From Jimgerdemannia flammicorona (lineage: Eukaryota), in contig RBNJ01000139.1 of the NCBI GenBank assembly GCA_003990765.1, forward strand, positions 1 to 39,522: a stretch of 39,522 nt of DNA, written 5' to 3'. The notes below the pieces were generated by a model, which saw nothing but the letters and a program-made list of their open reading frames with translations, was not told the origin of the DNA and did not search any database. Positions within the stretch are counted from its first letter, which is position 1; every line of letters starts with the position of its first letter. Positions 7,401 through 39,200 of the stretch are shown one piece after another. Both the position numbers and the translations under genes were made by a program.

Positions 7401-7681
7401 TGTCCCATTGAATTAGCAGTATAAGCGTAAGCGCTAAATGTTTATACATGTTTAAAAAGGGGTGGAGGGAGGGAGCTTCAAATAAGACACATAAGTACTA
7501 AGCGCGAGTAATGATACAGATAAGATTCATGAATGCTGAGTGCGAGCAATCAGGGCTGAAAGGAAGAAGACAACTTAGCAAATGGCAGCGGCCGACATCT
7601 TGTTCAATGAATAAGAGTTGAGAAGGCCTGGAGAAATAGAGGAGAAATTGCAGTGTGTATAAGATATGCATGTATAGTGGA

Positions 7682-8833
7682 CAGCTCCTTTCTCTGCTAC
7701 CATACCAGTCACAAGGTATGGGTAGGCAACTGTCTGGGTCCTCTTTCTCCTAACTTTACACTCTCTACCCCAGTGTGGTTTGCTGTACCTGCAAGAGTAT
7801 AGTGGGAGGAGGGCAATGGTGATAAGTTGCTCCTTTATCAGTGTCAGATTAGTGCTTCTTTTACTTTTTTATAGTTTCTGGTATCTCCAGCTATATCTGG
7901 GATATACCTATTTTAGTATAGTACTTTCTTCTCTATAAGATATTGTCTCAGTATATTATGGATTATACGTATATAGAGTCAGCTGACCTTGGATATCAAG
8001 TACCAATATAGATTATCTGCAGATTGCCAGTATCTGTAGTGGGGCCCTCTGAGCTTTGATAAGCTTTCTGGTAAGTATGATTCTAATATAAGTAACTGCT
8101 TTTTAGAAAGAGTCAAGATGAGAAGAGAGATGGTCATTATAGATAGAAGGCAGAGCAATTATAGTAAACCAGTAGAGTGCTAGGCTGAGAGTAGTCATTA
8201 GGGCTAGAGCAGATACTATATCAGTGAGACCTTCTGATTGATGCTAGATAGATATCACTCTTAGTAGCTCTCAGTAATATATAAGATTAAACTCTCTAAT
8301 AATTAGATTATTGAAGGACTTAAGGCTATCTAAATCAGATATCTTGACTGTACTTAACTAGAACTAAGAGCTGATGTAGCAATATAATCAAGATCTACAG
8401 GCTTGAGTAGTGGGGTCTTCTCTCACCTTATGTATAAGTTCTCTACCCATCTTATTGAAGAGAACTAGGCCCTACTCACTACTTGGTATCTTATAGAGGA
8501 TTTTTATTTACCTATTACTCTACTTAGAGTGGCAGAGACTATACAAATTGGCTCAAACATAGTCTTATATATATATTGGGGTTTCAGATATATACCTTCA
8601 GTTATAAGTATATAATTACTTTCCCCTGATGGTAGAAAGAGCATGATGTACAGAATAAGATACAGACTAATATAAGCCCTGCTGTGCCTAGTATAGTTAA
8701 GCTGCTAGACAATAGCTAGCCTAAATTCATAGAGATACAGTACTTGGTGGGAGAGTGGGGAAGGGTTTTGACCTTTATAGTCTAGGTTCTCTTTCAATAA
8801 AAATCCATAGAGAGAATGTTCCTGTTATAAAAG
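7682..8833 (+). mobile_element. Non-coding non-LTR (SINE-like) retroelement, copy 1, heavily C>T/G>A eroded
   Basis: Colinear along its length with the reverse complement of 30367-31550 and starts at the same AGCTCCTTTCTCTGCTACC. AATAAA near the 3' end; flanked by ATATGCAT(G/A)TATAGTGGA at 7664-7681 and 8846-8863 (TSD, preceded by a TA run). Confidence 0.85.
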
Positions 8834-9419
8834 ATATATATATATATATGCATATATAGTGGAATGTATAGTGCACGGGTATGTTTGTGCAATTGACACA
8901 TGATCCCACTCTGATCCAGAATATGCAAGGAGCAGGAAGTGTAGATTGTGGTATTTTTATTTTTATTTTTATTTTTATTTTTCGCAGATAAAAATGGAAA
9001 GCCTTGACAGACGTGCAGTCCTCGGCCTACGCGATCATGAACTGTTCAGCGGGGCTGTGTGCTTGTGTAGAATCTAACGCAGACTGAGTGGAGCCTATGT
9101 ACTCAGCAGCATGACTCATCGGCCTGCGAGCCCGTAGTAATCCTCAAAGCAATTCGTGAATTTGGTGAATTTAAAATTTCACATGACTAATGTTACATGG
9201 GAAGAGTCTCTTTGTTTTTTATTATGCGTCAATTCAGTCTGGCTTAATGGCAAACAAATCGGAGGTAACGAGCTCAAAAATACTTGTGTGCTATGTAATT
9301 ACTACAGGCGCCGTTAGACACAACCTTGATACCAGTCGTCAGCCGTGCTGACAATGCCATACATTGCATGCTCGCCAAGAATCGCAAATGAGAAAATAAT
9401 ATCTCATGCATACAAGAAA

Positions 9420-18025: not shown

Positions 18026-19453
18026 TAATATATCAGCTCAATAGAGGCAAATTATAAGGTTTAAGCAGCTATATAGATTGGCTTGAGCCCTTAGTTACTT
18101 TGTTAAAAAGCAACAAAATGTTCAGTTGGTCTCTAAAAGTGTGAGTTCTTCTGTTAGTATAATGTGAATGATTTTGGTAATTTCCTTAATAGGTATAAAT
18201 CTGTATAATATAGTAAATCGGTAGATTTCTTTAAGTAGTAGCTAAGTTCTTTAGGCTTCATCTGGCAAGTGGACCAAAATGTGATAAATATCTCAAAGTT
18301 CTTTAGGCTTAATCTGGTAAGCAGACCAAAATTGATAGACTTCTTTATATCAGAAAGTAGACTAGAGTAGAAAAGAGAATAAAACTTACAATTTTCTTAA
18401 TAGTAGTTTTAGAGTAGGTATTTCTCCTAAGTATTGCAATCTTTTTCTTAAATTAAGTAACTCTTAGTAAGTATATATATCTCTCAAAGTATATTATAAG
18501 TAAACCTATCTTTTGTTTTTTTCTTTAACTTTTCAGATTGAGATTTATTCACTCAAATCTCTGAGATATTTTATATAAGTATGATTGCTACATATCTATA
18601 ATCTTCTTGGCTTTCTAGTCTGCTTAGTTCTGGAATAAAATATAAAATAAATATATTTATTATTTAATATAGAATAAATATTTTTAATCTTCATATCTAA
18701 TCAAAGGCACTCATTGGGTCTTCATTATATTTGCATATACTAGTGAAATTGAGAATTGTTCTGATATATGATTCTTCTTTCCTTTCTTACTCCAAGTTAT
18801 TTGAGAACTCTGAAAATATTTTAATAATGATTTTTAGCTACTAAATATATATTCATTTAATTTTAATTTGCATATTATATATATATATATAACTACTTAT
18901 ATATATTGAATCTGAACTCTCAGGCTCATTATCATAATAGTGCCCAGTATTCATTTCTTGACTATGATAAGGAGTAGTAGTAGTGGGAGATGCTATTATA
19001 GTATGTAGTAAGAGTTGTTGCAATTGACTTAAGATTTCTGAACCTATTGTCACATAGTGGTCGCTGAGTTCTTCAAATATGTCAGATTCTCTTCAAGGTG
19101 TATCTCTTAGACTAACTCAAGTTTGTTATAAGCAAGGTCTTATTGGAGTACCTTCCCAAGGTCTTATAGTCCTCAAACTTCTTATCTTTAAACTGTCTTG
19201 TTATCTCTTAGATTGCTTACAAGGAAGTATATATATTGTACTGAGAAGACTGACTTTATTTCAGAGGAAATAAGAGGGGTATTTATACAAAATATAATTT
19301 AATAGTTGCTAAGATATAAAGCTAAATATAAATTCCAATAACTAAAACTACTAAGTTCCAGGGCTGGTACTGATGATTGTACAGGTTCAGGATGCTGGCA
19401 TTATTTAGTATCACATCAAAATGCTGGTACTGGAACAATTTTGCATTACCTCA

Positions 19454-19549
19454 GAATACCAGTGCTGGCATTATCCAGTGTTATATGAGAATACCAGTGC
19501 TGGCATTATCCAGTGTTATATGAGAATACCAGTGCTGGCATTATCCAGT
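19454..19549 (+). repeat. 35-bp tandem repeat inside the gypsy A LTR
   Basis: GAATACCAGTGCTGGCATTATCCAGTGTTATATGA x2 plus a partial third copy; the sister LTR (~32834-32893) has one unit fewer. Confidence 0.85.
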
Positions 19550-19875
19550 ATAATAAAGAACTTTAGAGCAGAAAGTTCAGGATCATAGAGGCTTCATCAT
19601 CATCATTACTGAAGGAGATGAGATCTGCGAACTTGTCATGTAAGTCACACGTTTCGTGTATGTCATACAGGATAATGTCATCACATTCAGCTGTGGTGGG
19701 AAAATCAGGAACAAGGAGATCTAGAGCTCTCCAGTCTATGAGGTTCTCTTCCACAAAATAGAGAACAAATATGAAGTCTTGGAGAGGTCTAACCTGGATG
19801 CTTGGGCCTTGGAATACTGAGATCAATCCTTGCAGGAATTGGTCTGGGTTGTTCTGAAGGATAGAATGCCAGAAG

Positions 19876-22800
19876 TGTTGAGATTATAGGTTACAACTCG
19901 ATATAGCACTTGATATAGATAATTTGTGGCATAGTAGAGTTGAGGTGACATTATCAATAATTGTGTAAAAGCACATAACATTAGGTGATCAATAAACATT
20001 CTTCTTCTCCCATTCTTCCTATTCCTCCTGAGTTCACAACAAAGGTTATAAGCCCTGCTAGCGAAAGTGGATAATATATACACCTCTTTAGTATACACTA
20101 CACTACAATGTACGAAGATGTCAAACTTAGGAAGTCCAAGCTCAAGTGCTGCGGTGCCAAGTCTGGCAAGTAACACAAGCAGAGCAGGTACTAGTGTGGG
20201 TACTACAGTCCCTCTGGTGGGTGCCCCAGTGATTACTCCAGTGGTAGCTATGACAACAAAAAGAATGATTCCTGTCTTCGACAGTAAGGATTATACCATA
20301 TAGGCATACCATATGAGGAACCTCTTGGAGGAATGTGGTCTAGAGGGCTACTGGAAGCTACAGGCTCAAGTAATGAGATACAATACAGCAAAGGATTGCA
20401 AGATGTTGAGGGAGATCACATTCACTCTATTGAATGAGTAAATGAAACTCATTATAAATGCTACGATAGCAAATGAAGCCTGGGAGACCCTACATGATCA
20501 TTATCAATAAGCATCCGTGTCCAACAGATTCCACCTGAAGGGACAGTTATTCAATCTATGGAAGAAGCCCAAGAAGAGTATTCAAGAGTATGCCAACTGT
20601 ATTAACGATCTGACAAATTAGGTGAATTCTCTTTCTATGCCAGTGGACCTCATCAGAGAGGAAGACAAGGTCCTGGCCCTTATACGAGGTCTTCCCAACA
20701 TGTTTAATGTGGTCATGTCCACTATGTGGGAATCTGATAAGCTCTCGGACTATAAGTACATCATCATGAGCCTATTAAATGATGAATCAAGGCAGAACAA
20801 TGGTGCAAATGAAGACTATGATGAGAAAGCGTTCTATGGCATGCATGGTTGAGACAAAGAAAAGCCAAGCAAAGGATAAGAACAACATAATGGTCAATAT
20901 GCCAAATTTGGCAGTAAGTGCTTCTACTGTAATAAGCCTGGACATTATGTCCAAGACTGCAATCTTAAGAAGAAAGAAAAGAGAGACCAATGTGGTCAAG
21001 CAAATGTCATGGACACCAACAATCAAGGTGGCAATGGAATGTTTTTCACAGAGACAGAGAGCTACCAATATGCTAATGTAAGCTATATATCTGATAGCAC
21101 TAATGTATGCAGCAAAGAAGTTTGACTCATGGATTCTGGTACAACACAACATATGACAGTGCACCGCGAATAGTTCTCTACGTACAAGAAGTTCAAGCAT
21201 CCCGTACCTATCAAGCTAGGTGACAACAATGTGATCTATGCTCAGGGCAAAGGAAATATTGGTATACATCTGCATGGAAAGGTCGAAGAACCCTCAGGCA
21301 CCTTTGCGAACATACTATATACTCTGGATATAGGCAAAAATCTCTTCTCAATAGGACGAATGATGGCCTGAGGAGACAAAGGAGTAAATATATGTCTGAA
21401 TAGAGTAATGGTAATCGATCTAAAGAATAATAAGGAATTAATGTATATATCGAAAAGAGGAAATCTTTATGCAATCGATGGTATGCCAAACAGTACATCA
21501 GCATATTCTGCAATGACAAATGACACCTGGCATATATGGCATGAATAATTAGGACACATTGGCCAGACAAGCTTAGAACAGATGATGAGGAATAGCTCAG
21601 TGAAAGGATTGCTGAACTGTACATCTCCGAACTTCTTTTGTGATGACTGCGTAGTGAATAAGGCTTCTCAGAAATCTTTTCAGGAATAGATGAAGTGAGC
21701 AAATGGTATACTCGACCTTATACATATGGACATTTGCAGTCCCATACATATGTTGTCACACTCCAGGAAGAAGAACTTCATTACTTTCATAGATGACTAC
21801 ACTCATAAGGCTCACATATACTTCCTCTCTACAAAGAGCAAAGTATTCAAGAAATTCAAAGAATTTAAGGCAAGCATGAAGAATGATACGAAATGTCAGA
21901 TAGGGATGCTACACTCGGATAATGGGATAGAATATGTAAATAAGTCCTTTAAATATTTTTTAAAAGAGTATAGAATATGACATATTAGAATGGCTCCCTA
22001 TATACTGCAACAAAATGGTATGGTGGAACAGTTCAATAGAACAATCATTGAGATGGCCTGAACAATGATGAATGCAGCTGGCCTGCTGCAATCCTTCTGA
22101 GCCAAAGCATTGAACATAGTGGTATATATACGTAATCGATTCATTTCTCAAGCCTTATGCAAAGAGAGTGACATACAGTCTAAGGATGATAACCTTATAC
22201 CTGAAGAACTGTGGAGTGGATCTAAGCCTGATGTCTCACACTTATGGATATTCAGAAGTGAGGCTTACATATTGGATAAAAGTAGAAATAGAGGAAAATT
22301 CGAGCCTAAGGCAGATAAGCATATATTCCTTGGATACAACAGATCAGCATATAGGTTGTGGAATATGTAAAAGCATGGTATAATCATCTCTCATGATGTT
22401 CAGTTCAAAGAGAAAGTAAAGGAAATTTGTGTGGAAATTTCTATACCCATAATCAATCCAATGGCAAGTGGAATTACGCCAATAGTGAGCGTGAATACTA
22501 CACCAATGATTCCAGTAATGGCAACACAACCAATGCCTACAAGATCAATAGTGCAAGCACCTACAAGACCCCCTGAACCGAGAATTACGGAGATTTCGGA
22601 TAATGAAGAGGACATCTCTCTGAAGGGTAAGAAAAAGCACAAATCTGGGATGGATAACGAAGTCCAAGTAGATCTGGGAAATTACTGGGATCCACCCAAG
22701 TTATCTTGTCACAAGCAATATCATATGAACTATGCCTGCGAATGCACTTACATAGCAATGATCAGTGAGCCGGTACACTACAATGAAGCCATTCATTCGA

Positions 22801-24790
22801 GCAATAAAAAGGAGTGGAAAAAGGCTATGAATGAGAAGTATAACTCACTCATTGAGAATGACACATGGGACTTGGTCCCTCTTCTGGCAAATTGACAAGC
22901 CATAGGATCCCAATGGGTGTATAAAATCAAGTGCGATAGCAACAGCAGCATAGAATGATACAAGGCCTGATTCATGGCAAAAGAGTATTCACAAGACTTT
23001 GGAGTCGACTACAATGAGATATTTTTCCTGGTATTCAAGCTTACTTCACTTAGAATACTTCTTGCGATCAGAGCCAAGTATGATTATGAGATACATCAAA
23101 TAAATGTTAAGACAGCCTTTCTAAATGGAGATGTGGATACTGAACTATATGTTCTTCAACCACAAGGATACAAACTCTATGACAATGAGAAGGAGTTAGT
23201 ATGCAGACTATGCAAAGGCCTCTATGGTATAAAACAGGCGGTAAGGCTATGGAATCGAAAGATCGACAATTATTTTATAGAAGAGAACAGGTTCAAATGA
23301 TGTAAAGCAGATCTATATATATATACTCATCATACATCCTCAGGATGGTATACCTGGAAATTTGGGTTGACGATATCATTCTGGTCAGGATGACAAGTGA
23401 GATCAATAAAGTAAAGGTAGTATTACACAAGAAGTTCAAGATGACAGATATGGGTGATACGTCTTTCCTTTTGGGGATATCCATCATACATGACAAGAGT
23501 ACATATACTATATACTTAAGCTAAGAAGCCTACATTCAGACAATACTCAAGCGATTTGGCATAAGCGAGTACAAGCCAGTCAGAACACCAATGGAGACAT
23601 CTGTAAGACTAAAGAAGTCCAATACACCTGATGATAATGACATTCCCTATTGATAAGTGGTGGGATCTCTTATATATCTAATGCTTGGGATGAGATCCAA
23701 CCTATCACATGCAATTAACAAGGTGGCACAATATACATCATGCTATGACAACTCACATTGGATGGCAATCAAGCGCATATTCAGATATATACATTAAAGG
23801 TACAAAGAGCTATACGCTCAATTTGGATGATAAAGGAGTTAAAAGATTAAGCGAGAGTACTGTTACAGTAAGCCTTTCTGGTGTGTGTGATACTGATTGG
23901 GCTGGGGACTTAGATGACAGAAGGTCTACAATAGGATACTTCTTCTATCTTGATGATGGTAGAGCCATTTCATAGCAAACTCATAAGCAATCATCAGTGG
24001 CAACATTGTCTATACAAGCAGAATATCAAGCATTATCAACAGTGATAAAGGAGGCTATCTGGCTTTGTGAACTGCTAAAGGATCTGGGATTCCCTCAAGA
24101 ATCTATAACTATATGACAGGATAACCAATCCACCATTGCTTTGGCAAAGAATCCTATACATCATGCAAGGACTAAGCATATCAATATACAGCACCATTAT
24201 ATACGAGAATGCATTGAAAATGAGGCTATATACCTGTTATACATCCCTATGGAGCAAATGGCAGTAGATTTGCTAACGAAGGCCCTTCCAAAGGCAAAGT
24301 TTGATTTTTGCATACAAGAAATAGGTATAATGATGAGTGATAAGCAAATAATGGCGAATGATAGATAAAAATAAATATTATGGTGAAATGATAGGTAGAA
24401 TGAGTGTTATGGCAAATATTTGTGATGGAAACCTATAACATTGCTCAGGATTTCCATTTTTTCACTACTTCTCTTACCTATTTTTATGTTTATAAGTAGG
24501 GAATTTTGAACTTTTTTGGTCATCTAGATAGTATCTCATTGGTAATGTTTTGTTTTCTACTTAACTTAGCTAGAGATTGATCAGTTTTATTTATATTTGT
24601 ATTCTTTATCTCGTTGAGTGGGAGTGTTGAGATTATAGGTTACAACTCAATATAGCACTCAATATAGATAATTTGTAGCACAGTGGTATTGGGGTAACAT
24701 CATCAATAATTGCATAAAAGCACATAACATTAGGTGATCAATAAACATTCTTCTTCTCCCATCCTTCCTATTTCTCCTGAGTTCACAACA
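19876..24790 (+). mobile_element. Full-length degenerate Ty1/copia retrotransposon with a Ty5/Hemivirus-type PBS
   Basis: 166-bp LTRs TGTTGAG...CACAACA at 19876-20041 and 24625-24790. TSD AGAAG/AAAAG; the empty site in the sister LTR (~33216) has a single AGAAG. PBS GGTTATAAGCCCT; PPT GAGTGGGAG; gag CFYCNKPGHYVQDC; PR MDSGTTQHM; IN DLIHMDIC; RT KTAFLNG and WVDD; RH DTDWAGDLDDRRST. Confidence 0.95.
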
Positions 24791-27700
24791 AAAAGTCTTC
24801 TACTTCTTCACTATTAAGAGTGATAGTGGACTGGGCTTCTGTAGCCACCCTGGCTTCTAGTGCATTAATATGGCGGGATGATAGATCTCTGAAGTCTGAG
24901 ACTCTGATATACTCTAAGTTGGGGATCGACCATGGTGCATACCTGAAGATCTGATGAATCTTCTTAGCTATCCTCATTTCACATATATCCATAGGAGTGG
25001 CATCTTGTAGCTCTTGGGTACTGGCCTGTGGGAACTCTTGGCAGAGGAGGTTTCTTATTTCATACTCCTGCCACATTTGGAGGCATTTGGTAGCAATAGT
25101 AATCCTTGTTTCCATTTCATAGTGGTAGAGAATGAAGTAATAAGGGTCTGCAGTACTCAGGTTGACACTAGGAGTCCTTCTTGAGCAGGTCCCCATGGCT
25201 CTTCTGATGTCTTGAAATATTCTTTCCTTGACCGAGATACCTTGGTGATTCCTTGACCTTGAGGTTTGACAGACAGCAGGTATTTCATTTGTGGTAAGTC
25301 TTTGAGCTATTTTGGAATTGATGGTTCTTGTTAGTTACTGCTACTGCAGTTCCTTGATCCTTCTTTTATATTCTTCAGGATGCTTATACTGTGGTTACAA
25401 TGACTCATAGTTGGTCATCATTACTCATCTTGTATGCCATATGATCTTCTTGTGCTCTGATCTGGTGGCTTGTAAGGAAAGGCTGTCTCCTGTGCTGATG
25501 TCATCATTCTGGGGTCACTATTACATCTTCTTCCTGAATAAGGATCTTCCTGAGCATCCTTATTCATTGGTCCAGTTCTGAAAAATTTTCTGATCTCATA
25601 ACCTCTGGCAAGGGGTCAAAAAGTGGTATTTATGGGCTGGCATCTTCTCTTTGTATTTTGGCATGATGGTGAAGAGTTGCTCCCTTCATATAGAGTAAGG
25701 GCCTGATTCTGATCTTGACCAATCAGTTGATGGTTCGAACTCCTCTGACTTCGAAAGTCTCACAGATGAGTAGTTGCCAGTACTGTATCCTTTAGAGAAT
25801 GGTCCAGACAGATAGCCTGCTGGTCATGGGACATGCTGTTACAATTCACAGACTAGAACCTTATGGGTGGTCATCACATTTTGCTTCTCTTGTATAGGTT
25901 TGTGGTACTTCTTGAGTCTGTTCCTATATACCATGGTAGGCTGTATGGTCCCTGAGATTTTTCTAAGCCAGAAGGTAGTTCCCTTGATATCTTGTACATA
26001 GAAGGGTCCTTCCCATTTGGGCTCCAGTTTTCGCGACCATGAGGCTTCTACCATATTTCAATACAGTAGAACCTTTTCTCTGATTTGGATGGGTTCTAGG
26101 GCCTTGTGATTCTTTTCCATATTCTTTCTTGTCAGCACTTATAACTTGGTGATGTAATCTTCAGCCTTCTTCCTGATTTGGTATAGTCTCCAGATTTCTG
26201 CATCAACTCATCTCCAAGTTAGGTCTAGATTTGTAGCTGAGGTTCCATCAGAATCTTCTTCTCTGAAGAGCAGCTCTCTTGGGGTAAAATGTATGCTCTG
26301 TGACTGTATGTCTCATAGGACAGAGAGGGTGGTTGGGAGATGGTTATCCCAATTCTCATATGTCTCTGAGATCTTCACTAAGATGTTCTTGAGAGTCTTG
26401 TTGGTTCTCTCTGTCTGTCTATTTCCTTAAAGGTGGTACATGGTGGTCTTGATGTGCTGGATCTTGTATTTCTGATACATTATCTCATGAAATCCATTGA
26501 CAAATTCTGTGCCATGGTCTGTTGTGATTTGCTTTGGTGTCTTGTAGCAGCAGATGATTTCTCAATATAGGAAGTCAGCTATAGAGAGGGCATTGGCTTC
26601 TTATAATGCTCCTACCTCTATCCATTTAGTGAAGAGGTCTACAATAACTATAATATAGTGGTTTCCTGATAGTATTACTGGTAGTAGTCCAATAATATCT
26701 ATTGCAATGTGGTGGAAGGGGATAGACTCAATTCTTGATGACCCAGGTGCCTGGTCTTGCTGATCTTGTTTCTGTTTTTGGCACTTGTCACACCCTTTGA
26801 CAAATTGGCACAGGTCTTCTTCCATCTTGGGCCACTACATGGTTCTTCTTGCCTTATCATATGTATTGGTTCCTCCTAAGTGTCCTTGCTCATGTACTTC
26901 CTTCATTACTTGATACTTCTTGTGTTCGGGTATTACTAGCTTTCCTCCTTTTCTGAGTGTGGTGTTGTCTAATTCAAACTGTTTCCAAGTCCAGTTGATA
27001 ATAGTGATTGTCCAGGGTTTGAGGTGGTTGGGCATCTTCTGCTGCCCAAGGTAGCTAATTAATCCATAGTATAGCTCCTTATTCATATTGAATAATCTTG
27101 ATGAGGATGTTTTGGAGTGTCCTTGAGAGTGCATCAGCATTGGTGTTGGTCTTTTCTGAGCAGTACTTGATAGTACAGTTATACTCTTATAGCCTGTAGA
27201 TCCATCTGGTATATATTCCTTTGGGGTTCAGAGTGTTGAATAGTCAGGTAAGAGCAGAATGGTCTGTTTGAATGGTGAAGTGTTTCTTGGCTAGGTAGTA
27301 GTGGAACTTGTCTACTGCCCAAACTACTGCTAAGCATTCAAGCTTGCATGACTCATAGTTCTGTTCTGCTCTGCAGGTACCTCAGCTTGCATAGGAGATA
27401 ACATATTCATGTCTATCTTTCTTCTGAGCTAGGACTGCTCCAAGTCCTATAGTACTCGCATCTATCTGCAGGATGAATTCTAGGTTCCAGTCTGGTCTTC
27501 TGAGGATGGATGCTTGGGTCAATCTGATCTTGAGTTCATTGAAGGTTTCTTAGTATTCCTTGGTCCATTCAAATTTGGTCTCCTTCTTCAGTAGCTTGTA
27601 GATAGGTGCTACAATGTTAGAGTATTCTTTGATGAATCTTCTATAGTAGCTGGCCAGTCCAAGGAAGTCATAGACTTCTGTAGTTGTTCTGGGTCTTGGG

Positions 27701-28603
27701 TAGACTGCAACAGCCTCGATCTTCATAGGGTCTGTGTGGATTCCAGTCTGGTTGATGAGGTGTCCTAGGTAGGTAATTTCTTGAGCTACAAACTTGCATT
27801 TCTTGGGCTTGATGTAGAGGCCATGCTCCTTGAGCCTCTTGAGGGCTAGCTGTATATAATTGACATGTTCCCATACAGTGTTGCTGAAGATGATCACATC
27901 ATCAACATAGACAAAGAGCTATTTTCCAATCTTGTTGCTGAAGACTCTGTTCGTCATTTGCTGGAAACTTGCTGGGGCATTGTACATTCCAAATGGTATT
28001 CGCAGGTAGATATAGGTGGCATTAGGTGTGATGAAGGCTGATTTCTCACTGGCATCTTGAGTGAGATCAATCTGATGGAAGCCTGAGAACTGATCCAAGG
28101 TGGTGTAGTATTTGGCTTTGCTTTCAAGGGTGGTGAGGATTTCTTGAATATTTGGCAAGGGCTGCTTATCCTTCTTGGTAATGGCATTGAGTTTCCTATA
28201 GTCAATGCAGAGTCTTAGTACAAACTCTCCAGGCTTACTTCCTTTCTTTGGGGCTAGGATAATGGGTGAGGCCCAGGGGCTGATATGTAGCTCACTTGAT
28301 GATTCCAGCTTCTTCCATTTCCTTGAGTTCTACTTGCAGCCACTCTCTGTAGGCAGGTAGTATGGGTCTGACTTTCTGATAGATGGGCTTGATATCACTG
28401 GTGTCAACTTCATGATAGTACTTGGGCTCTTGATTATGGATATTCCTAAAGTCTGTAGCAAGTACTCATTCATTCTGGTGCAGGATCTTGAGAAGTTATT
28501 CCTCCAGGGGAAAGTTTTCTCCAATGGTATATGTGTGCTTGTTCTGGTCCTTGTCTTTCTTGTGCTCAAGTTCGGTAATCTTGGTGGCAGCATAGGCTCC
28601 TCT

Positions 28604-29014
28604 TCCAGTAGATCCAAAGCTTTATTCTCCTCTCTTGGTCTTGATGAGTTCAATGGCTTCTATGATCTTTGGCTTCTTGACTTCATGGATCAGTATCTGG
28701 CCAATCCTGTCATGCTTCTTGACTTTGAAGGAGGTGGTATGGTTGTGATTTCTGACTATGAGGAAGATCTTGCCAGTGTAATCAGGGTCAATTACTCCTC
28801 CTTTAACTGAGATTTTGCCTTTGGCCAGACTGCTCCTGGTCTTGATAATTCTGGCATGGTTTTCTAGTAACTTGACTCCAATTTCAGTGCCAAGTAGGGT
28901 GGTGGTCTGTGGTTCGAGGGTAGCATCTTGAATGCTGGCAAGGTCCATTCCTATGGCTCCTTCAGTCTTGTATTCTGGGATCTTGGCTTCAGGGTGAAAC
29001 TTCTTAATCTTGAG
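28604..29014 (-). pseudogene. Trimeric dUTPase domain within gypsy A pol, between protease and RT
   Basis: All five motifs: AIGMDL, RSSLA, GGVIDPDYTG, RIGQ, RGE*SFGSTG (premature stop in motif 5). Confidence 0.93.
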
Positions 29015-30366
29015 GGTGATGTCTGATTCTTGTTCCTCCTCATTGTCACTGTCAGCTTGAAGCTCTGGGGGCTGGTCATCTTCTTTGGCTTTCCTTTTTG
29101 CTTTGGCAGCTTCTTGCTCATATTTCTGTTGGCAGATTTTCCTGACTTTACTGATACAGGACCAGCAGTCATTCAGGTGTTCAGAGTAGTATATTCTAGT
29201 ACCATGGGGGCATCTTCCTTGAGGGGCATAGCCATTGATGATCTTGTGGTACCACTGCTCATCTGTGAGCTTGGGTGTCTTGTTCTTGTTCTTGTTTACC
29301 AAGTGCATGAAGACCTCTGTGTCTTCTTCATCTCCTTCCTCTATGTCTAGTAGGACTCCTTTGTGGACATTGATAGAGACTCGTACCTTTCTCCCTCTGT
29401 AGTTGATCTGCATCTTCTGGGCATTGAGGTCAATGATGGCCTTGGTCTTGTGAAGCCATTGGTTGCCAATGAGGATATCATAGTTGATAGCACTTGTAAC
29501 AATCATGTCTACTGGGATGATAGCTCCTCCTATCTTGATGGGGACTTCTCAGATTTTGCCAAGGGGGGTAGCTCATGTACCATCTGCTGTAACATAGACC
29601 ATCTTGGTGGACTCTTCAATATCCCAACCCTAGGTGGTCAATTGCCTTCTTGCTCATGAGGCATCCTCCAGCACCAGTATCAATGATGGCATCAAAGATA
29701 CAGTCTTTGATCTGGTAGGGAGTATAGGCTGATGTCTTGCACTGGTCTTCAGATTCTTCACCTGAGTTCTCGGATTCTTCCTGTGTATTGTGAGCTTCTA
29801 CAATCTTGCACTCTTGATTCTTAGCAGTAGTTGCAAGTCCTACTCTCAACTGCTGTCTGAAGGCAGGGACTTCAGCTAGCTATCCAAAAGTGGCATTGAC
29901 CTTCTGTTCTTTAAGGTCCTTGTAGATATCATACTGGTGGATCTTGGTCTTGTGCAGCTTCTATTCCTTCTTGCCTTCACTTTCTCCTGAAACTGGAGTA
30001 GTGCCTTCTATGATTTGGTGGGTAGCTTCATCTAACTCCATGTCTTGATCAATCTCCTCAGGTTGGGTCTTACTTTAAATAGTGACAGCTGGGGTCTTCT
30101 TTGATCTTCCAACTGGCTTGCTGTTGCTCTTCTTGTCATAGGGCTTGGACCAGGTTCTGGTACCTTCAGTAGCTGGGTAGAATTTGAGCTCCTCATAGTA
30201 TTCTTCATCATCAGTATCACTGATCTCCTCGATGACTACTGCATTGGTTTGTTTTCTGGTTCTGCTAGCATTGCTTGGTTGGGCTTTGCATCTTGTTTCA
30301 GTCATGCAACTCTTTGCATAGTGGCCTTCTTCTCCACATCTGAAGCATGTAATATTGTATTCTTCT

Positions 30367-31550
30367 TTTTTTTTTTGTTTAACAGACTCTATGTCCTGCG
30401 GATTTTTATTGGAAAGGAACCTAGACTATATAGACCAAAACCCTCCCCCACCACCCATCAAGCACTGCCCCCCCATTAATCTAGGCTAGCTATTGTCCAG
30501 CAGCTCGACTATACCAGATGCAGTAGGAAAAATTAGCCCATACCTCATTCTGTGCACCATGCTCTCCCTACCACCAGGGGAAGCCCAGCCATATGCCAAC
30601 GACCGAAAGTGCATGCCTGAGAACCCAACGTATGTACAAGGCCATGCCCGAGCCAAATAGAATAGCCCCTGCCACCCCAAAGAGAATGACAGGCAAAGAA
30701 AAAACCCTCATCAAAGCACAACATTGTGGGTAGGGCCTGGTTCTCCTAGTCGAGGTGAGTAGAGGACTTACATGTGAGGTGGGAGGAGACTCCCAATACC
30801 CCACTACTCAAGCCTGTGGGCCTTGATCATATTGCTGTGTCAGCTCCCAGTTCCAGTTGAGTGTAGCCAAGATGCCTGAAATGGGTAGCCTCGGGCCCCC
30901 CGACCCCCCTGATGACTGGGGCCCAATCCCATGAATTGCCAAAAGAAGCCGAGAGTGACACCTACCACCTAACCGCACCGCACCAATCAAAAGGCCCCAC
31001 CAAAGCAGCACCTGCCCCAGCCCCAACGACCGCCCCCAGCCTGGCACCCTACTGGTTCACCGTAATTGCCCTTCCTCCTATCTGTGATGGCCATCTCCCC
31101 TCCCATTCTGACATTACCCAAAAAACAGTCACCTATGCCAGAACTGTGCTCACCGGGAAGCTCGCCAAAGCCAGAGGGCCCCACCACAGGCACTGAGGAC
31201 CTGCAGGTAACCTACACTGAGCACTTGATGCCCAAGGTCAGCCAACTCCCTACGTAGCCCAAGACACACCAAGATAACTCCTAGTTGGCGACAGCAAAAG
31301 GAAGAAGGTGCCGCACCAAAATGGACACACCCCAGACACAGCTGAAGGCACCAGAATCCACGAAAAAGTGGAGGAATCACTGATCTGACACTGATAAAGG
31401 GGCAACTCATCACCATTGCCCTCCTCCCACCATGCCCCTACAGGCACAGCAAACCAACCTGAGGTAGAGGGGGTAATAATAGGGGAAAGGGGACTTGGAA
31501 GATTGCCCACCAAACCTTGTGACTGGTAAGGTAGCAGAGAAAGGAGCTAG
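30367..31550 (-). mobile_element. Non-coding non-LTR (SINE-like) retroelement, copy 2, inserted into gypsy A gag
   Basis: Poly(A) tail (T run at 30367-30376), AATAAA ~30 nt upstream of it, 15-bp TSD ATATTG(T/C)ATTCTTCT at 30352-30366 and 31551-31565. Interrupts gag just before the zinc knuckle; GC-rich, no recognisable ORF. Confidence 0.9.
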
Positions 31551-32410
31551 ATATTGCATTCTTCTGTAGCAGCTGCAAATCTCTGTACTGGTCTCCTGTT
31601 AGTGCTTTGGACTTCTCTGACAACATCACCAAGGTGTGCAGTCATCTCAGTGAACTGCTTGGTGAGTTTCTCCACTGGGTCAGCTTTGGCTGTCTTGGGA
31701 GTAGGTGGAGTTGGTTGTCTGTTTATAACTGTAGTAGATAAGATGCTAGTTGGCTTTGATGGCTCTATCTTGATACTAGTTATTTTCTCCATTGAGTGTT
31801 TGGCAGGATGTCTGGCAGTCCAATATCTCTGTGCAAAGACCACTTTCTGATCAAGGGTCAGTGTAGCTGGGGTAGATCAGATTGCTAGGACAATTTCAGG
31901 GTGAACTCCTTTGAGAAAGATTGAATCTACTATTTGTTCCTTGAGGCAGTCATCATAGCTAGCCAAGACAATTTGGTGGCAAATTTGGGTATAGAATGAG
32001 TTGAGATCTTCACTAAGTCCCTGGCAGATAGTATTGAGTTGATCCTTGAGAGCTTGCTTGATCTCTTTGGTATAATATGTTGTTCTGAGGAAGACCTTCA
32101 TGTTGGCAAGTTTGGCTGCACTAGTATCAGCAATGGTAGCTGCATTGAACTTGTCTCTAGCAGGTCCTCTGAGGTTAACTGGTAGAAGGGCTAATTGAGC
32201 ATCTACACCAAGGGCTCGTATGGCAGCAAATTGTTCAAAGTCTTCAATGAAGATCAGGATTGACTCTTCAGTAATATATCCATAGAATGTGGGGGGGTGC
32301 ATTTCCATCTTGTCTTGAATTCTTGCAGGAGTGACTCTTGTAGTCAGGGTAGTTGTTGTGGGGGTTGTTCATTTTTCAGCTTGAAAGTGAGGGATTCATC
32401 TTGAATCACC

Positions 32411-32425
32411 AGCCAATGGGCACCA
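32411..32425 (-). promoter_or_regulatory. tRNA primer-binding site of gypsy A
   Basis: TGGTGCCCATTGGCT lies 3 nt inside the 5' LTR boundary; identical at 38366-38380 in gypsy B. tRNA identity not determined. Confidence 0.85.
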
Positions 32426-32428
32426 AGT

Positions 32429-33950
32429 TATCATGTAGTGGTTGCTGAGTCCTTCAAATACATCAGATTCTCTTCAAGATATATCTCTTAGACTAACTCA
32501 AGTTTGTTATAAGCAAGTTCTTATTGGAGTGCCTTCCTAAGGTCTTATAGTCCTCAAACTTCTTATCTTTAAACTGTCTTGTTATCTCTTAGATTGCTTG
32601 CAAGAAAGTGTATATATTGTACTGAGAAGACTGACTTTATTTCAGAGGAAATAAGAGGGATATTTATACAAAATATAATTCAATAGTTGCTAAGATATAA
32701 AGCTAAATATAAATTCCAATAACTAAAACTACTAAGTTCCAGGGCTGGCACTGATGGTTGTACAGGTTCAGGATGCTGGCATTATTTAGTGTCACATCAA
32801 AATGCCAGTGCTGGAACAATTTCACATCACCTCAGAATACTAGTGCTGGCATTATCCAGTATTATATGAGAATCAGTGCTGGCATTATTCAGTATAACAA
32901 AGAACTTTTAGAGCAGAAAGTTCAGGATCATGGGGGCTTCATAATCATCATCACTGAAGGAGATGAGATCTGCAAACTCATCATATAGGTCGCGCATTTC
33001 ACATATGTCACACAGAATGATGTCATCACGTTTAGCTGTGGTAGGGAAATCGGGAACAAGGAGATCTGAAGCTCTCCAGTCTATGAGGTTCTCTTCTACA
33101 AAATAGAGAACAAATGTGAGGTCTTGGGGAGGTCTAACCTAGGTGCTTGGGCCTTGAAATACTGAGATCAATCCTTGCAGGAATTGGTCTGAGTTGTCCT
33201 GAAGGATAGGATGCCAGAAGTCTTCTACTTCTTCACTGTTGAGGGTGATAGTGGACTGGGCTTCTGTAGCCACTCTGGCTTCTAGTGCATTGATATGGTG
33301 GGATGATAGGTCTCTGAAGTCTGAGACTCTGACATACTCCAAGTTGGGGATCAACCATGGTGCATACCTGAAGATCTGATGGATCTTCTTAGCTGTCCTC
33401 ATTTCGCATATATCTATGGGAGTGGTATCTTGTAGCTCTTGGGTACTGGCCTGTGGGAACTCTCAGCAGAGGAGGTTTCCTATTTCGTACTCCTGCCATA
33501 TTTGGAGGCATTCAGTAGCAATGGTGATCCTTATTTCCATTTCATAGCAGTAGAGAATGAAGTGATAAGGGTCCACAGTACCCAGGTTGACACTAGGAGT
33601 CCTTCTTGAGCAGGTCCTCATGGCTCTTCTGATGTCTTGGAACATCCTTTCCTCAACTGAGATACCTTGGTAATTCCTTGACCTTGAGGTTTGGTGTGCA
33701 GTAGGCATTTTGTTTATGGTAAGTCTTTGAGCTATTTTGGGATTGGTGGTTCTTATTGATTGCTGCTATTGCAGTTCCTTGATCCTTCTTTTATATTCTT
33801 CAGAATACTTGTGCTATGGTCACAATGACTCACAGTTGGTCATCATTGCTCATCTTATATACTATATGATCTTCTTGTGCTCTAATCTAGTGGCTTGCAA
33901 GAAAAGGCTGTCTCCTGTACTGATGTCATCATTCTGGGGTCACCATTACA
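32429..33950 (-). repeat. 5' LTR of gypsy A (1522 bp)
   Basis: Homologous to 19048-19875 plus 24796-25525; adjacent to the PBS. Confidence 0.9.
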
Positions 33951-34585
33951 ATAGCTAAGATATGCAATAATGTACTCTTTTTTGTCTTCCTTTTGAGCTA
34001 AGACTGCTCCTAGTCTCTGTGTACTTACATCTGTCTGCAGGATGAATTTTTGAGTCCAATTGGGTCATCTGAGGATGGGTGTCTGGGTCAGTCTGACCTT
34101 GAGTTTATCAAATGCTTTTTGTTGTCTACCAGTCTACTGGAACTTAGTGTCCTTCTTATTGAGTTCATAGATTAGATCTGTGATATTGGAGAATTCTCTA
34201 ATAAATCTGTAATAGTAGGAGGCAAGTCCCATGAAGGCTTGGGCTTCTGTTACAGTGGTGGGCCTTGGGTATGCTGCTACTACTTGTATCTTGAGGAGGT
34301 CTGTGTGTGTTCTATCTCGATTGATAATATGGCCAAGATAGGAGATCTCAATTTCTACAAACTTGCACTTCTTGGGTTTGATGTAAAGGCCATGTTATCT
34401 CAGTCTCTTCATTATCTGCTGTATGTGCTGCAGATGTTCCTCAGGTGTCTTGCTGTAGATGATTACATCATCAATATAAACCATCATCCATCTTTCCATA
34501 TCATAGTGGAAGATTTTGTTCATCATTCCCTAGAAGCTTGCTGGTGCATTGCACATCCCGAATGACATTTACAGGTAGATGTAGG

Positions 34586-35209
34586 TAGTGCTCCTAATGA
34601 GTCAATTTAATCCAGATTGGATTCGGATTGATTCGGATTGAATCCCATCCAGATGGATTCGAATCAACCATTGTTTTGATTTCCAAATTAGATAATTAAA
34701 TGTTTACATCATTAACTCAATGAATAATCATCCAAATTTGATGATCTTGGTGTCATTTGAAAGCCCTTAATAAGGCCTATCTAATGATGCCAAGAACATT
34801 GAAATCCAATCATGCGTTGCTGAGTTATGAAGGAACCTGTCTGAATCGCCAATTTTGGAAATTCTTCGATTTGCCAATTTTGGAAATTTCGTCAAATAGA
34901 ACGTTTTCCTTAATATCTCGGCAACGCGTAATCTGATTTTAATTTTCTTGATATCATTAGAAAGGCCTTATTAAGGGCTTTCAAATGACACCAAGATCAT
35001 CAAATTTGGATGTTTATTCATCGAGTTATTGATGTAAACATTTAATTGTCCAATTTGGAAATCAAAACAATGGTTGATTCGAATCCATCTGGATGGGATT
35101 GGAATCCAATCCGAGTTGATCTGGATGGGATTCGAATCCAATCTGAGTTGATCCGGATGGGATTCGAATCCATCTGAATCCCATCTGGATTGACTCATTT
35201 GGAGCACTA
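34586..35209. mobile_element. hAT-type MITE / foldback element (624 bp) inserted into gypsy B RT
   Basis: TIRs TAGTGCTCC.AATGAGTCAAT / ATTGACTCATT.GGAGCACTA; 8-bp TSD GAT(G/A)TAGG at 34578-34585 and 35210-35217; long inverted arms with repeated GGATTCGAATCC-type motifs; no ORF. Confidence 0.9.
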
Positions 35210-35800
35210 GATATAGGTTTCATCTGGGGTGATAAAGGCTGACTTTTCACTTGCCATTTCTGTGAGTCTGATTTGGTGGAATCCTGAGTATAAGTCCAAG
35301 ATGCTGTAGTACTGTGCTTCATCTCCTAGTATTATAAGGATGTCGCTGATGAAGGGCAGTGGTTGGTAATCCTTCTTGGTAACTGTATTGAGTTTTCTAT
35401 AGTCAATACAGAGTCTTGGGGCAAATTCTCCAGGCTTGCTTCCTTTTTTTGGGGCTAGTACAACTGATGAAGACCAGGGGCTGCTGGCTTCTTTGATAAT
35501 ACTGGCTTCTTCCATCTGCTTGATTTCTTCTCTGAGCCATTCTCGGTAGGCTGGTGGGACAGGTCTTGCCTTCTGGTAAATTGGTTCAGTGTCTCCAGTA
35601 TCTACCTCATGATAGTAGTGTAGAGTCTTTTCTTTAATATCCTTGAAGTCTGTGGCAAGAACATCCTCAAATTCATAGAGTATTTTCTTGAGTTCCTCCT
35701 TGAGTGGGAATTTATTTCAAATGGTATAGCTGTGCTTGTTTGTGATTTCCTTCTTCTTATACTCCAGTTTGGTGATCTTGGTACTGGTGAATACTCCTCT

Positions 35801-36215
35801 TCCTGTAGATCCAAATTCTTTATTTCCTCTTTTCATTTCCTCCAAATTCTTGACTTCTATGATCCTTGGTTGTAGGATCAGAAAGATCAGCATCTGTGCC
35901 AATCAGTCCTTCTTCTTGACTGGAAATGGAATTGTAGGATTGTGATTCCTAGTAATGAGCAGAATTTCTCCAGTATAGTCAGAATTGATAACTCCTCCTT
36001 CAATAGTAATTTTGCTTCTGACTAGGCTGCTTCTTGTCTTGAGAATCCTAACATGATCCTTTGGAATAGTTATCTCCAGTCCAATTATGAGTAGGGTGGT
36101 TGTCTGGGGTTCTAGTATGGCTTCTTCTACTGTAGTGATATCCATTCTAGCTACATTTTCTAACTTGTATTCTGACAAAACTGCATCAGGGTGGGTCCTT
36201 CAAATCTTGACCTTG
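35801..36215 (-). pseudogene. dUTPase domain within gypsy B pol
   Basis: Motifs ARMDI, RSSLV, GGVINSDYTG, LAQ, RGNKEFGSTG, with in-frame stops. Confidence 0.9.
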
Positions 36216-39200
36216 ATTTTTTCTTCATCATCACTATTCTCTAGAAGGGCTGGTAGTTCATCATCTTCCTCCTCCTTCTCTTCTCTAATCTGTTTTTCGA
36301 GAGCTTTCTGTCTTCTTTCCTGGTAGATCTTCTTGATTCTGATGGTGCACTGGTAGCAATCATTGACATACTCCATACAGTACATCTTGGTCCTATGAGG
36401 ACAGACTCCTTGTGGTGTATAGTCTTCTGTGATCTTCTTGTACCATTCTTCTTCACTCAACCATCCTACTTTCTTCTTCAGAGTAGTCACCATATAAGCT
36501 TCCTCTTACTTGCTCTCTTCTTGCTCCATGTCAGGCAAGACTTCTTTATTGACATTAATGGGGATTTGTATCTTCTGTCCCCAATAGGTGATTTGCATCT
36601 TCTGAGCATTGAGATCAATTACTGCTCTGGCTTTATAAAGCCATTGATTGCTGATGAGGATATCATAGTTGGTGGCATTGGTTATGATTATATCTACTAG
36701 GATAGTTGCTCCTCTAATCTTGATGGAGACATCTCAGATTTTTCCCAGAGGAGTGGCTCTTGTACTATCTGCTGTGATAAACACCAACTTGGTTGCTTCT
36801 TCAATCTCCCAACCTAGGCAGTCTGCTGCCTTCTTGCTGAGAAAACATTCTCCTGCTCTAGTATCAATGATGGCTTCAAAGATTCTATCTTTGATTTGAC
36901 ATATTGCATAGGTAGAGGTTTTGCAATTGTCTTCACTTTCTTCTCCTGAGTCCTCTTGAATGTTATTGGTCTCAGTTATCTTCCATTCTTGCTTCTTGAT
37001 TGTTTTGGTGAGTCCAAACCTCATTTGCTGTCTGAATGTTGGGATTTCTGTGAGCTGACCAAAAGTTACATTGACCTTTTATTGGCTAAGATCCTTGAAG
37101 ATATCATACTTAAAGATCTTGGTCTTGTAAAGTTTCTTTTCTTTTTCTCCTTCACTGGCTGGAGTAGTTCCTCAGATAATATCTTAAACTGCTTACTCCA
37201 GCTCCATATCTTGGTCCATCTCTTTGACTTAGCTTTCTGTAACAGTTTCCATCTACTTTTCCACTGGGTTCTTCTTGGGTCTTCCTGGTGGTCTCTTGTA
37301 GGGTTCCTTGTGAACATCCTTCTTAGTGGTCTGGGCAGAATAGGCCTCCTATTCTTCTTTATCAGAATCTCCAATTTCTTTGAAGGTAATTATGTTGGCC
37401 TGCTCCTTGTTTCTAATAGCATTACTTGGTTGGACCTTGCACTTGATTTCACTCATATATTCATAGAAGTAGTAGCCTTCTTCTCTACAGATGTAGCAGA
37501 TATCTTTCTTCTTATCTGAGGTGGCAGCAAACTTCTGAACAGAGCAGTGATCTCTTCCTCTTATCTCCTTTACCACATCTCTCAGGTGGGCAGTCATTTC
37601 TGAAAACCTCTTGATAAGTTCCTCCAAAGGGTCACTGTTCTTTTGCTGCTCTGTAGTTTTTGGCTGAGGTGTGTTTCAATTGATCATTGTAGTAGGGATC
37701 ATACTAGTTGTCTTGGGTGCTTCGATTCTGACTCCTGTGACCCTCTCCATCATATGGTCTTATGGGTGTCTGGCTATCCAGTATTGCTGAGCATAGGTGA
37801 CCTTCTGTGGTAGATCCAGAATTACTGGTGATGAGTGGATGACCATGACTATCTCTGGGTAGACTCCTTTCATGAAGGTTGCTTCTGCTACTTGGTCTCG
37901 GATAGTATCAGCATAATCTGCAAGAATTATCTAGTATCAGATTCTTGTGTAGAATATGTTTGGATCTTCACTCATTCCTTGGCATATTGTATTGAGCTGA
38001 TCCTTTAGAGCTTGTTTGATTTCATCTGTATAGTAGGTAGTTCAAAGCCAGGTCTTCTGTGCTACCAGTGTAGTAATGGTATCATTTCTCACATAGTTTG
38101 TAGCTGTGAATGCTGCTCTTGTAGGGCCTCATAGGCTAAAGGGCATAAGGGCTACTTGCTGTACTGCTGTCAGAGTTCTTACAGTGACATATTGCTTGAA
38201 ATTATCAATGAAGGTGATAATTGATTCATCTGAGATATATTCATAGAATACTGGTGGTCTCATATCCATCTTGTCTGGGTATTGGGGCTTGGTTTGTATG
38301 ATTATTTAGGTAGTGGCAGTTGTTTATTGTTCAGCTTAAAAGTGAGGGATTTGTCTTGAATCACCAGCCAATGGGCACCAAGTTGTAACATAGCAGACAC
38401 TTACTCTTGAAAGTAAGTTGGACTTCTGTATCTTGAATACTTGACTGTTCTGACTCTTGTAGAGTCTTTGGGGTTACAGAGGTAGGTGAGTTCGAAGTAT
38501 ATCTGCCTGCAGGCTTACTAGTTCCTTGCTATCTCTTTGCTTTGAACTATTTTGATCTGAGGCTTTATTTACTCTAAGATACTGGGTTATTTATATAAGT
38601 TTTGCTAGCTATAAGATAGCTAAGTTATAACTATGTTTCCTATGAGTCATTTCTTTCATAAGTGTTAAATCCTTGACATCTATTAAATCTTTAACAATCA
38701 TTGAAGAGTTTAACATCTGTGAATAGTTTAACATTCGTGAAAACTTTAATATTTGTAAAATGACTGCTATCTGGACTATATTATATTTGGAAATCAGATT
38801 CAGGTACTATGATCAAATGTCTTATTCTCCTGATTCATACTACTAATTCAGATCAACCATCACACTATATTTAGCTTCTGATAAATTAAAGAAGTTCAAG
38901 AGCAATTTATTTAGCATGAGTGATATCAGCTTAATCATAAAGACTTGGGGGTCAATATTCAAATTAAAACCAATCATTCTTGACCAAGGAACCCACTGGC
39001 CTACAGGAGTCTTCAATAATGAAAAGAACCATACTATTATTAATAAATATAGAGAGATGGTTATAATAGTGGTGAGGAGTCTTTATAGTGAAGAACTTTA
39101 CAATTATATCTATGAGATTTACAAGAATTGTGTCAAATATCAGATAGTGGGAAAAAGAGAGTATAATAAGCAAAGAGATGAAGTTTGGACAGGAATTAGA

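Follow-up and report, generated by a model that had tools for sequence, protein, structure and literature searches.

A 39,522-nucleotide (nt) stretch of the Jimgerdemannia flammicorona genome (contig RBNJ01000139.1, positions 1 to 39,522, forward strand; hereafter, the window) contains two copies of a non-coding, polyadenylated retroposon whose family has at least 2,000 members, with two body types and four head variants. The family is best regarded as a real and large group of RNA polymerase II (Pol II) elements resembling short interspersed elements (SINEs), ordinary in kind; what is notable is a short head shared with a sister family built on a variable number tandem repeat (VNTR), the first 14 nt of which also form the 5′ end of a resident L1/Tx1-like long interspersed element (LINE). 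Judged from sequence features, the element is probably transcribed by Pol II, with the head serving as a portable internal promoter.

Two copies of one retroposon

An earlier note, made from the letters of the window alone, had described the two copies as homologous end to end with a common start, and alignment bore this out: copy 2 (30400–31548, minus strand) and copy 1 (7683–8806, plus strand) were 69.7% identical over 1160 alignment columns (E 2.5e-136), and both began with AGCTCCTTTCTCTGCTACC. Copy 2 is a full-length member of subfamily A that occupies 30367..31550 (minus strand), including two extra 5′ bases and the A tail, and is 92.4% identical to the 1175-nt subfamily A consensus. Copy 1 (7682..8833, plus strand) is older, 30% diverged from consensus A and carries a head of type D. 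C>T or G>A accounted for 261 of its 344 changes from this consensus, with CpG hit hardest and CpA and CpC affected too; the low identity between the window copies is mostly due to this decay, which presumably reflects methylation-driven deamination.

Both copies carry AATAAA and different target-site duplications (TSDs), as the earlier note had stated. The TSD of copy 2 is 15 bp (5′ copy, 31551..31565; 3′ copy, 30352..30366; minus strand) and that of copy 1 is 17 bp (5′ copy, 7665..7681; 3′ copy, 8847..8863; plus strand), with one G/A difference in each pair. The clear poly(A) tail of copy 2 (30367..30380, minus strand) consists of AAAC and around ten A, and copy 1 has AATAAA at 8796–8801 followed by a decayed A/(TA)n tail (8826–8846, plus strand). 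Insertion of copy 2 split the gag of a Ty3/Gypsy-type element, a paralogue of which runs uninterrupted across that point in the same window; a zinc-knuckle coding stretch of the host gag, labelled from reading the frame, lies just downstream of copy 2 and outside it (30306..30347, minus strand).

Subfamilies A and B share their first ~570 nt and last ~130 nt. The conserved 3′ module, located at 30378..30503 (minus strand) in copy 2, comprises a G-rich tract, TATATA (30427–30432), AATAAA (30405–30410) and GAGTCY (30384–30389). The variable middle (30503..30980, minus strand) is replaced or strongly diverged in subfamily B, except for a core of ~77 nt (30800–30876) that occurs twice in B.

A large family with a fixed start

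With the element as query, the window's own assembly (231 Mb) yielded 45 matches from the best 40 of 6052 candidates; almost all of them began at positions 3–7 of the query. Because this sample favours full-length copies, a second sample of 30 loci was anchored on the last 83 nt. Twelve of these loci were left out owing to a contig start, as was one (L067) that had been considered a truncated copy and proved to be interrupted by the same palindromic repeat as is found at 34586–35209 of the window. Among the 17 informative copies, 13 reach the common 5′ end and four are truncated, at consensus positions 117, 125, 765 and 906. None of the 17 continues upstream into LINE ORF2 or into shared sequence, and no extension into ORF2 was seen at the other sampled loci; the possibility raised in the earlier note, that such extensions would reveal a LINE 3′ untranslated region (UTR) with coincident truncation, was not borne out.

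A 12-nt motif near the 3′ end had 2014 exact matches in the genome, compared with 11 for the control, making 2,000 copies a lower bound. TSDs were found in 45 of the 61 copies having both flanks; 36 of them measured 14–17 bp, 42 began with a purine and 34 were preceded by a pyrimidine. The starts spread over ~6 nt, often with a few extra bases, and CAGCT preceded the motif in 41 of 97 ends. With TSDs, poly(A) tails and at least 2,000 copies, the family answers to the earlier proposal of a long SINE-like element with a defined start that is mobilised in trans through target-primed reverse transcription. The 147 heads collected fell into four variants: 127 A/B, 7 C, 2 D (window copy 1 and locus L277) and 11 on VNTR elements. 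This diversity, with four variants of the head and two types of body, implies that there were several source copies.

Among the long contigs listed, the exact 5′ motif paired with only 27 of 100 3′ motifs, after removal of a false pair at L258. This locus had been a candidate chimera with a LINE head and was rejected as such, being a 5′-truncated element copy that sits inside a LINE with a 14-bp TSD. Three of five 5′ truncations (L074, L081 and L258) fall at consensus 117–125, just before a G-rich tract and hairpin. Three independent element insertions (L070, L074 and L143) lie within ~25 nt of one purine-rich site on the LINE antisense strand, a possible hot spot.

Features of a probable Pol II transcript

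The earlier description of the element as non-coding and free of tRNA held up. There is no conserved open reading frame (ORF), the longest stop-to-stop frame in either family consensus being 125–133 amino acids; ARAGORN found 0 tRNA genes in the element, and consensus A has no sense-strand A box and a B-box-like 9-mer only at position 724. Rfam searches of copy 2 at E values up to 10 gave four matches, all far under the gathering score, and those of four further loci gave three, all outside the element. Derivation of the head from tRNA, 5S or 7SL RNA is therefore not supported. Consensus A also holds eight runs of four or more T, which, combined with the lack of an A box and of a tRNA, argues against transcription by Pol III. 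The element shares with classical Pol III SINEs its non-coding nature, TSDs, A tail and high copy number, but not their head origin or A and B boxes. In being non-coding, lacking a small-RNA head and having TSDs and a poly(A) tail or signal, it agrees with Pol II SINE-like retroposons of the Eg-R1/Sadhu type.

As the source of the defined start, the earlier note had offered an internal promoter or self-cleavage. The first is our preferred reading, indirectly supported by reuse of the head in a second family (see below). Under the second, a self-cleaving ribozyme in read-through transcripts would make the 5′ end, as in L1Tc or R2; most copies have a G near the element start, and the available part of a study of L1Tc reports that its promoter head can double as a hepatitis delta virus (HDV)-like ribozyme (PMC3185411). 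However, none of the HDV descriptor matches started at nt 1–12 of A, of B or of three LINE copies (a loose descriptor matches elsewhere by chance), the element contained no hammerhead core or Rfam ribozyme, and the ~6-nt scatter of starts does not fit a cleavage site. A candidate HDV P1 helix, a G-U-started 7-bp pairing of the element start with positions 266–272, was rejected, since nothing else of the fold is present and the pairing is disrupted in subfamily B. Folding gave no encouragement either: 150-nt windows of both consensuses folded no better than dinucleotide shuffles (sense-strand z −2.1 to +2.1). We regard a ribozyme origin of the 5′ end as very improbable.

The two GC-rich hairpins singled out in the earlier note do exist in copy 2, at 31400–31421 and 30893–30924. 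A special role for them did not emerge, since with shuffle-level folding throughout they are to be expected of a G-rich strand with 59% GC; the GGGCCCC hairpin, moreover, lies in the region replaced in subfamily B and is missing from copy 1.

A resident LINE as the likely driver

The genome contains an abundant LINE of the apurinic/apyrimidinic endonuclease (APE) type, with 150 scored of 4968 candidates in an endonuclease search. The LINE is ~5.8 kb long and has two ORFs, a poly(A) tail and TSDs, and its ORF2 has APE and reverse transcriptase (RT) domains. Among solved structures, ORF2 best matched human L1 ORF2p (E 1.6e-43, versus 4e-15 for R2), and its named homologues included TX1 proteins and fungal and plant elements; on these matches, and without a tree, we call it L1/Tx1-like. 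A LINE 3′ motif had 2991 genome matches, compared with 2 for its control, and the LINE TSDs, as read by eye, were of a size like those of the element.

Of 30 LINE loci sampled from the 3′ end, one ran into a contig start. Among the remaining 29, 12 end within ~1.1 kb and 17 extend past the sequence fetched. Truncation within ~1.1 kb did not differ between the element (4/17) and the LINE (12/29; Fisher p 0.34), suggesting that the fixed 5′ end is simply the start of the RNA, reached because the RNA is short (1.18 kb). The fixed start that the earlier note considered unusual is thus real but less surprising, given that, at the LINE's own truncation rate, the copying of so short an RNA mostly runs to completion. 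AATAAA followed by GAGTCC shortly before the tail is found in the element and the LINE alike, including divergent LINE subfamilies, although this likeness is not significant (see below). We consider the L1/Tx1-like LINE the likely driver of the element.

The sampled LINE copies (L116–L135) are G-rich on the sense strand and fall into at least three types by their 5′ UTR (~80 nt) and into several by their 3′ UTR. The LINE 5′ motif can pair with a complement ~60 nt downstream, with z below −2.5 in four of ten copies and one compensatory pair, in L130. Pfam PF14529 and PF13966 had no genome match, the latter searched without a positive control; PF00078 gave 150 listed genome matches, the ~480-nt length of which suggested RTs of the long terminal repeat (LTR) type.

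A short head shared with a VNTR family and, in its first 14 nt, with the LINE

A 14-nt motif, CCTTTCTCCRCTAC, is present both at the LINE 5′ terminus and at the element start; in copy 2 it lies at 31531..31544 (minus strand) as CCTTTCTCYRCTAC. LINEs start with CACCTTTCTCCACTAC or close variants and the element with CAGCTCCTTTCTCCGCTAC, a match reached by 0 of 200 shuffles. The pattern CCTTTCTCCNNTAC had 2621 genome matches, compared with 47 for its control. Among the first 100 listed, 91 were fetched, comprising 65 element starts, 19 LINE starts, 1 VNTR composite and 6 unrelated sequences. Scaled up, the sample corresponds to ~1,870 element starts against 2014 ends and ~550 LINE starts against 2991 ends, both rough figures because motif survival differs and, for the LINE, because the pattern misses one UTR type.

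In the single VNTR composite of this sample, L252, a 9-bp minisatellite comes after the first ~46 nt of the element. A pattern spanning the head-plus-GGCAA junction had 50 genome matches, compared with 1 for its control, and the 30 junction loci fetched (L286–L315) comprised 19 VNTR composites (for example, L297, L305 and L314), 8 LINE-internal matches and 3 others. Thirteen of the 19 composites have a head intact from CCCTTTC or a close variant, and in 15 of 19 the element head matches at E below 1e-3, with the VNTR following directly. Their layout is a C-type head, ~0.9–1 kb of repeats and a ~245-nt arm that matches neither the element nor the LINE, then AATAAA and poly(A); those with both ends in view also have TSDs. 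Accounting for only 1 of 66 sampled non-LINE starts, the VNTR family is far smaller than that of the element. At L236, two inverted arrays of a different short repeat (units like ATGGGAGATGAG) resemble the 9-bp VNTR without being the same.

In copy 2, the ~46–49-nt head common to the two families, our putative internal Pol II promoter, spans 31502..31549 (minus strand). A small hairpin (31506..31534, minus strand; CTACC...GGTAG in the consensus) is predicted in all four head types, and homology with the VNTR family stops at its 3′ arm. No compensatory change was found among 28 heads, which differ almost exclusively by C>T or G>A, so that covariation could not show.

From these features we propose the following route. 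The first ~46 nt would act as an internal promoter and, as the first 14 nt coincide with the LINE 5′ terminus, transcription would begin no more than a few bases from the left end of the element at any landing site. TATATA and AATAAA suggest that the RNA would be cleaved and polyadenylated ~25 nt past AATAAA. LINE ORF2 would then nick a pyrimidine/purine junction and copy the RNA from its poly(A), leaving products of the kind seen here: TSDs mostly of 14–17 bp, a few untemplated 5′ bases and occasional 5′ truncation. In sequence, the head is modular, with bodies exchanged behind it to give subfamilies A and B and the family with a 9-bp minisatellite and another 3′ arm.

Where the head came from is a further step. 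It is tempting, although short of an even bet, to see it as a ~46-nt promoter cassette from the 5′ end of an L1/Tx1-clade LINE that acts as a portable founder of non-coding Pol II retroposons, having given rise in a fungus to both a 2,000-copy family and an SVA-like minisatellite family. Several results weigh against the proposed route as a whole. Beyond the 14 nt, homology between the element and the LINE 5′ UTR was not significant for two UTR types (scores reached by 644 and 657 of 1000 shuffles); a third UTR type matched weakly, its consensus at 11 of 1000 shuffles and its seven single copies at 94–979 of 1000. The 3′ likeness (AATAAA...GAGTCC) was likewise not significant, with its scores reached by 17 and 142 of 200 shuffles. 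Furthermore, the VNTR family was found by a pattern using part of the head, which biases upward its share of head-bearing copies.

Alternatively, an L1/Tx1 LINE could long ago have given rise, by internal deletion, to an ORF-less derivative comparable to RIME or NARTc; it would work in the same way, but its head, body and tail would all come from an extinct or unsampled LINE lineage. Such a derivative would account for the identical 5′ motif, for the AATAAA...GAGTCC that precedes the tail in every LINE subfamily sampled, for the G-rich sense strand of both (410/1175 bases in the element and 2239/5846 in the LINE) and for a patchy ~50-nt alignment with one LINE UTR type. But the body had no colinear DNA match to three full LINE copies from the best-scoring LINE family of the endonuclease search, which is the family that this comparison covers (best blastn E 0.21; whole-length score reached by 8 of 30 shuffles), and the whole element is thus not assignable to LINE sequence in the manner of RIME and NARTc. 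The tblastx hits were short, non-colinear and in reverse frames (best E 1.3e-6), and we read them as composition. We consider this origin unlikely.

Less likely still, a host gene for a long non-coding RNA, with an ordinary promoter upstream and present at one or a few source loci, could have produced the copies by retroposition; the fixed 5′ end would then be the start site of that gene and most copies would be dead on arrival. L1-type LINEs copy any polyadenylated RNA, and a poly(A) signal, Pol II features and the lack of Pol III boxes would suit any Pol II RNA. However, one host gene would hardly yield 2,000 copies or more, with four variants of the head, exchanged middles and a second family that has this head as well, and no two sampled full-length copies shared upstream sequence, other repeats aside.

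Sequences from outside the assembly were also surveyed. The head pattern was found at six loci in metagenome contigs, with no match better than E 0.004. Five public runs matched, with shares of 0.04–0.32, and all consisted of contigs; none of the four aligned shows a transcription start. In two of these (X1 and X2, aligned to L005), the middle was covered at far lower depth than the head and tail, which would fit an organism with different bodies between these ends; this involves contigs only and is not conclusive. One run contained a contig skipping the element. We take neither pattern as evidence of transcription, as the RNA label is a guess for two of the runs and the flank is itself a repeat.

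Relation to known retroposons

The comparisons that follow draw on the available parts of the cited papers. One close likeness by description is to the fungal, non-autonomous Eg-R1, Egh24 and BG_Non-LTR set of barley powdery mildew (10.1101/242271), which similarly lack Pol III A and B boxes, have internal T runs, an AAUAAA signal and TSDs, and for which Pol II transcription has been inferred. Among the eight Blumeria families, similarity is greatest over the first 100 nt, and 88 nt are common to two of them (10.1101/242271), a precedent for head sharing between such families. Eg-R1 differs in being ~670 nt long, in its genomic copies, reported to be without poly(A), and in encoding a peptide; the part of that paper available reports neither a link of the head to a LINE 5′ end nor a VNTR sister family (10.1101/242271). 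A 2026 preprint describes many independently transcribed Blumeria SINEs (10.64898/2026.05.04.722472).

Sadhu elements of Arabidopsis are also non-coding (~900 nt), with poly(A), TSDs of 7–18 bp, no small-RNA head and LINE-type target sites, and they have a conserved 5′ motif with a pyrimidine patch and transcription from near the start (PMC2848041). Sadhu differs in its plant host, its 16–21 full-length copies (here, at least 2,000), its motif CAATCGTTSC, which is not at the starts of our consensuses, and a driver LINE that was not identified (PMC2848041); here, a resident LINE has the element's 5′ motif.

The pairs RIME/ingi and NARTc/L1Tc offer a parallel in which the non-autonomous partner has the 5′ head of the LINE, there an internal Pol II promoter starting at +1 (PMC1874656, PMC5786205). 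Their Pr77 head is 77 nt and is reported to be an HDV-like ribozyme as well (PMC5786205); here, only 14 nt are firmly shared, no ribozyme was found by the searches above and the LINE is L1/Tx1-like. ORF-less bipartite derivatives have been reported only from RTE, Ingi, Vingi and R2 (PMC5786205). The VNTR family resembles hominoid SVA, which is L1-dependent, in its pyrimidine-rich head, VNTR, unique 3′ arm, poly(A) and TSDs, but it has no Alu-like or retroviral part, its unit is 9 bp and its head is shared with a family without a VNTR; this is an analogy only (PMC3956500). In Candida, SINEs and SVA are little known and LINEs are of the L1 clade (PMC3956500). Our literature search turned up neither this family nor, in fungi, a shared head of L1 origin; Repbase Reports and most subscription journals were outside its scope.

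The promoter origin and driver LINE of Eg-R1- and Sadhu-type elements are left open in the cited papers, as far as the available parts go; in the present genome, one short head links the element to a candidate driver and to a sister family. If the head is a promoter, L1/Tx1 LINEs would be added to the small number of clades from which ORF-less partners are known to have arisen, and a minisatellite placed behind a borrowed promoter could give SVA-like composites in fungi. If it was also taken from the 5′ end of an L1/Tx1 LINE, it would be for the L1 clade what the Pr77 head is for trypanosomatid elements, and a minimal L1-type internal promoter. If the head is not a promoter, the family would simply add to the large SINE-like families already known and be of use mostly in repeat annotation.

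Other features of the window

Two diverged and broken Ty3/Gypsy-type elements occupy 26835–33950 and 33967–38384 (minus strand), the first with a dUTPase domain after its protease. The second is interrupted at 34586–35209 by the palindromic insert noted above, which resembles a miniature inverted-repeat transposable element (MITE) and has short internal repeats; related pieces also interrupt loci L067, L101 and L231. A repeat of ~1.7 kb, probably an LTR, is present at 19047–20043, 24623–25525 and 32428–33950 in copies that are 88–91% identical, one of which is split by a copia-like element at about 20044–24622 (labels from frame reading). An AT-rich degenerate tandem array with a period of ~170–180 nt, missed by Tandem Repeats Finder, spans 16222–18026, and a GH18 chitinase gene with at least two exons, a Pro/Thr/Lys-rich linker and a Cys-rich tail lies at 1476–3025 (minus strand).

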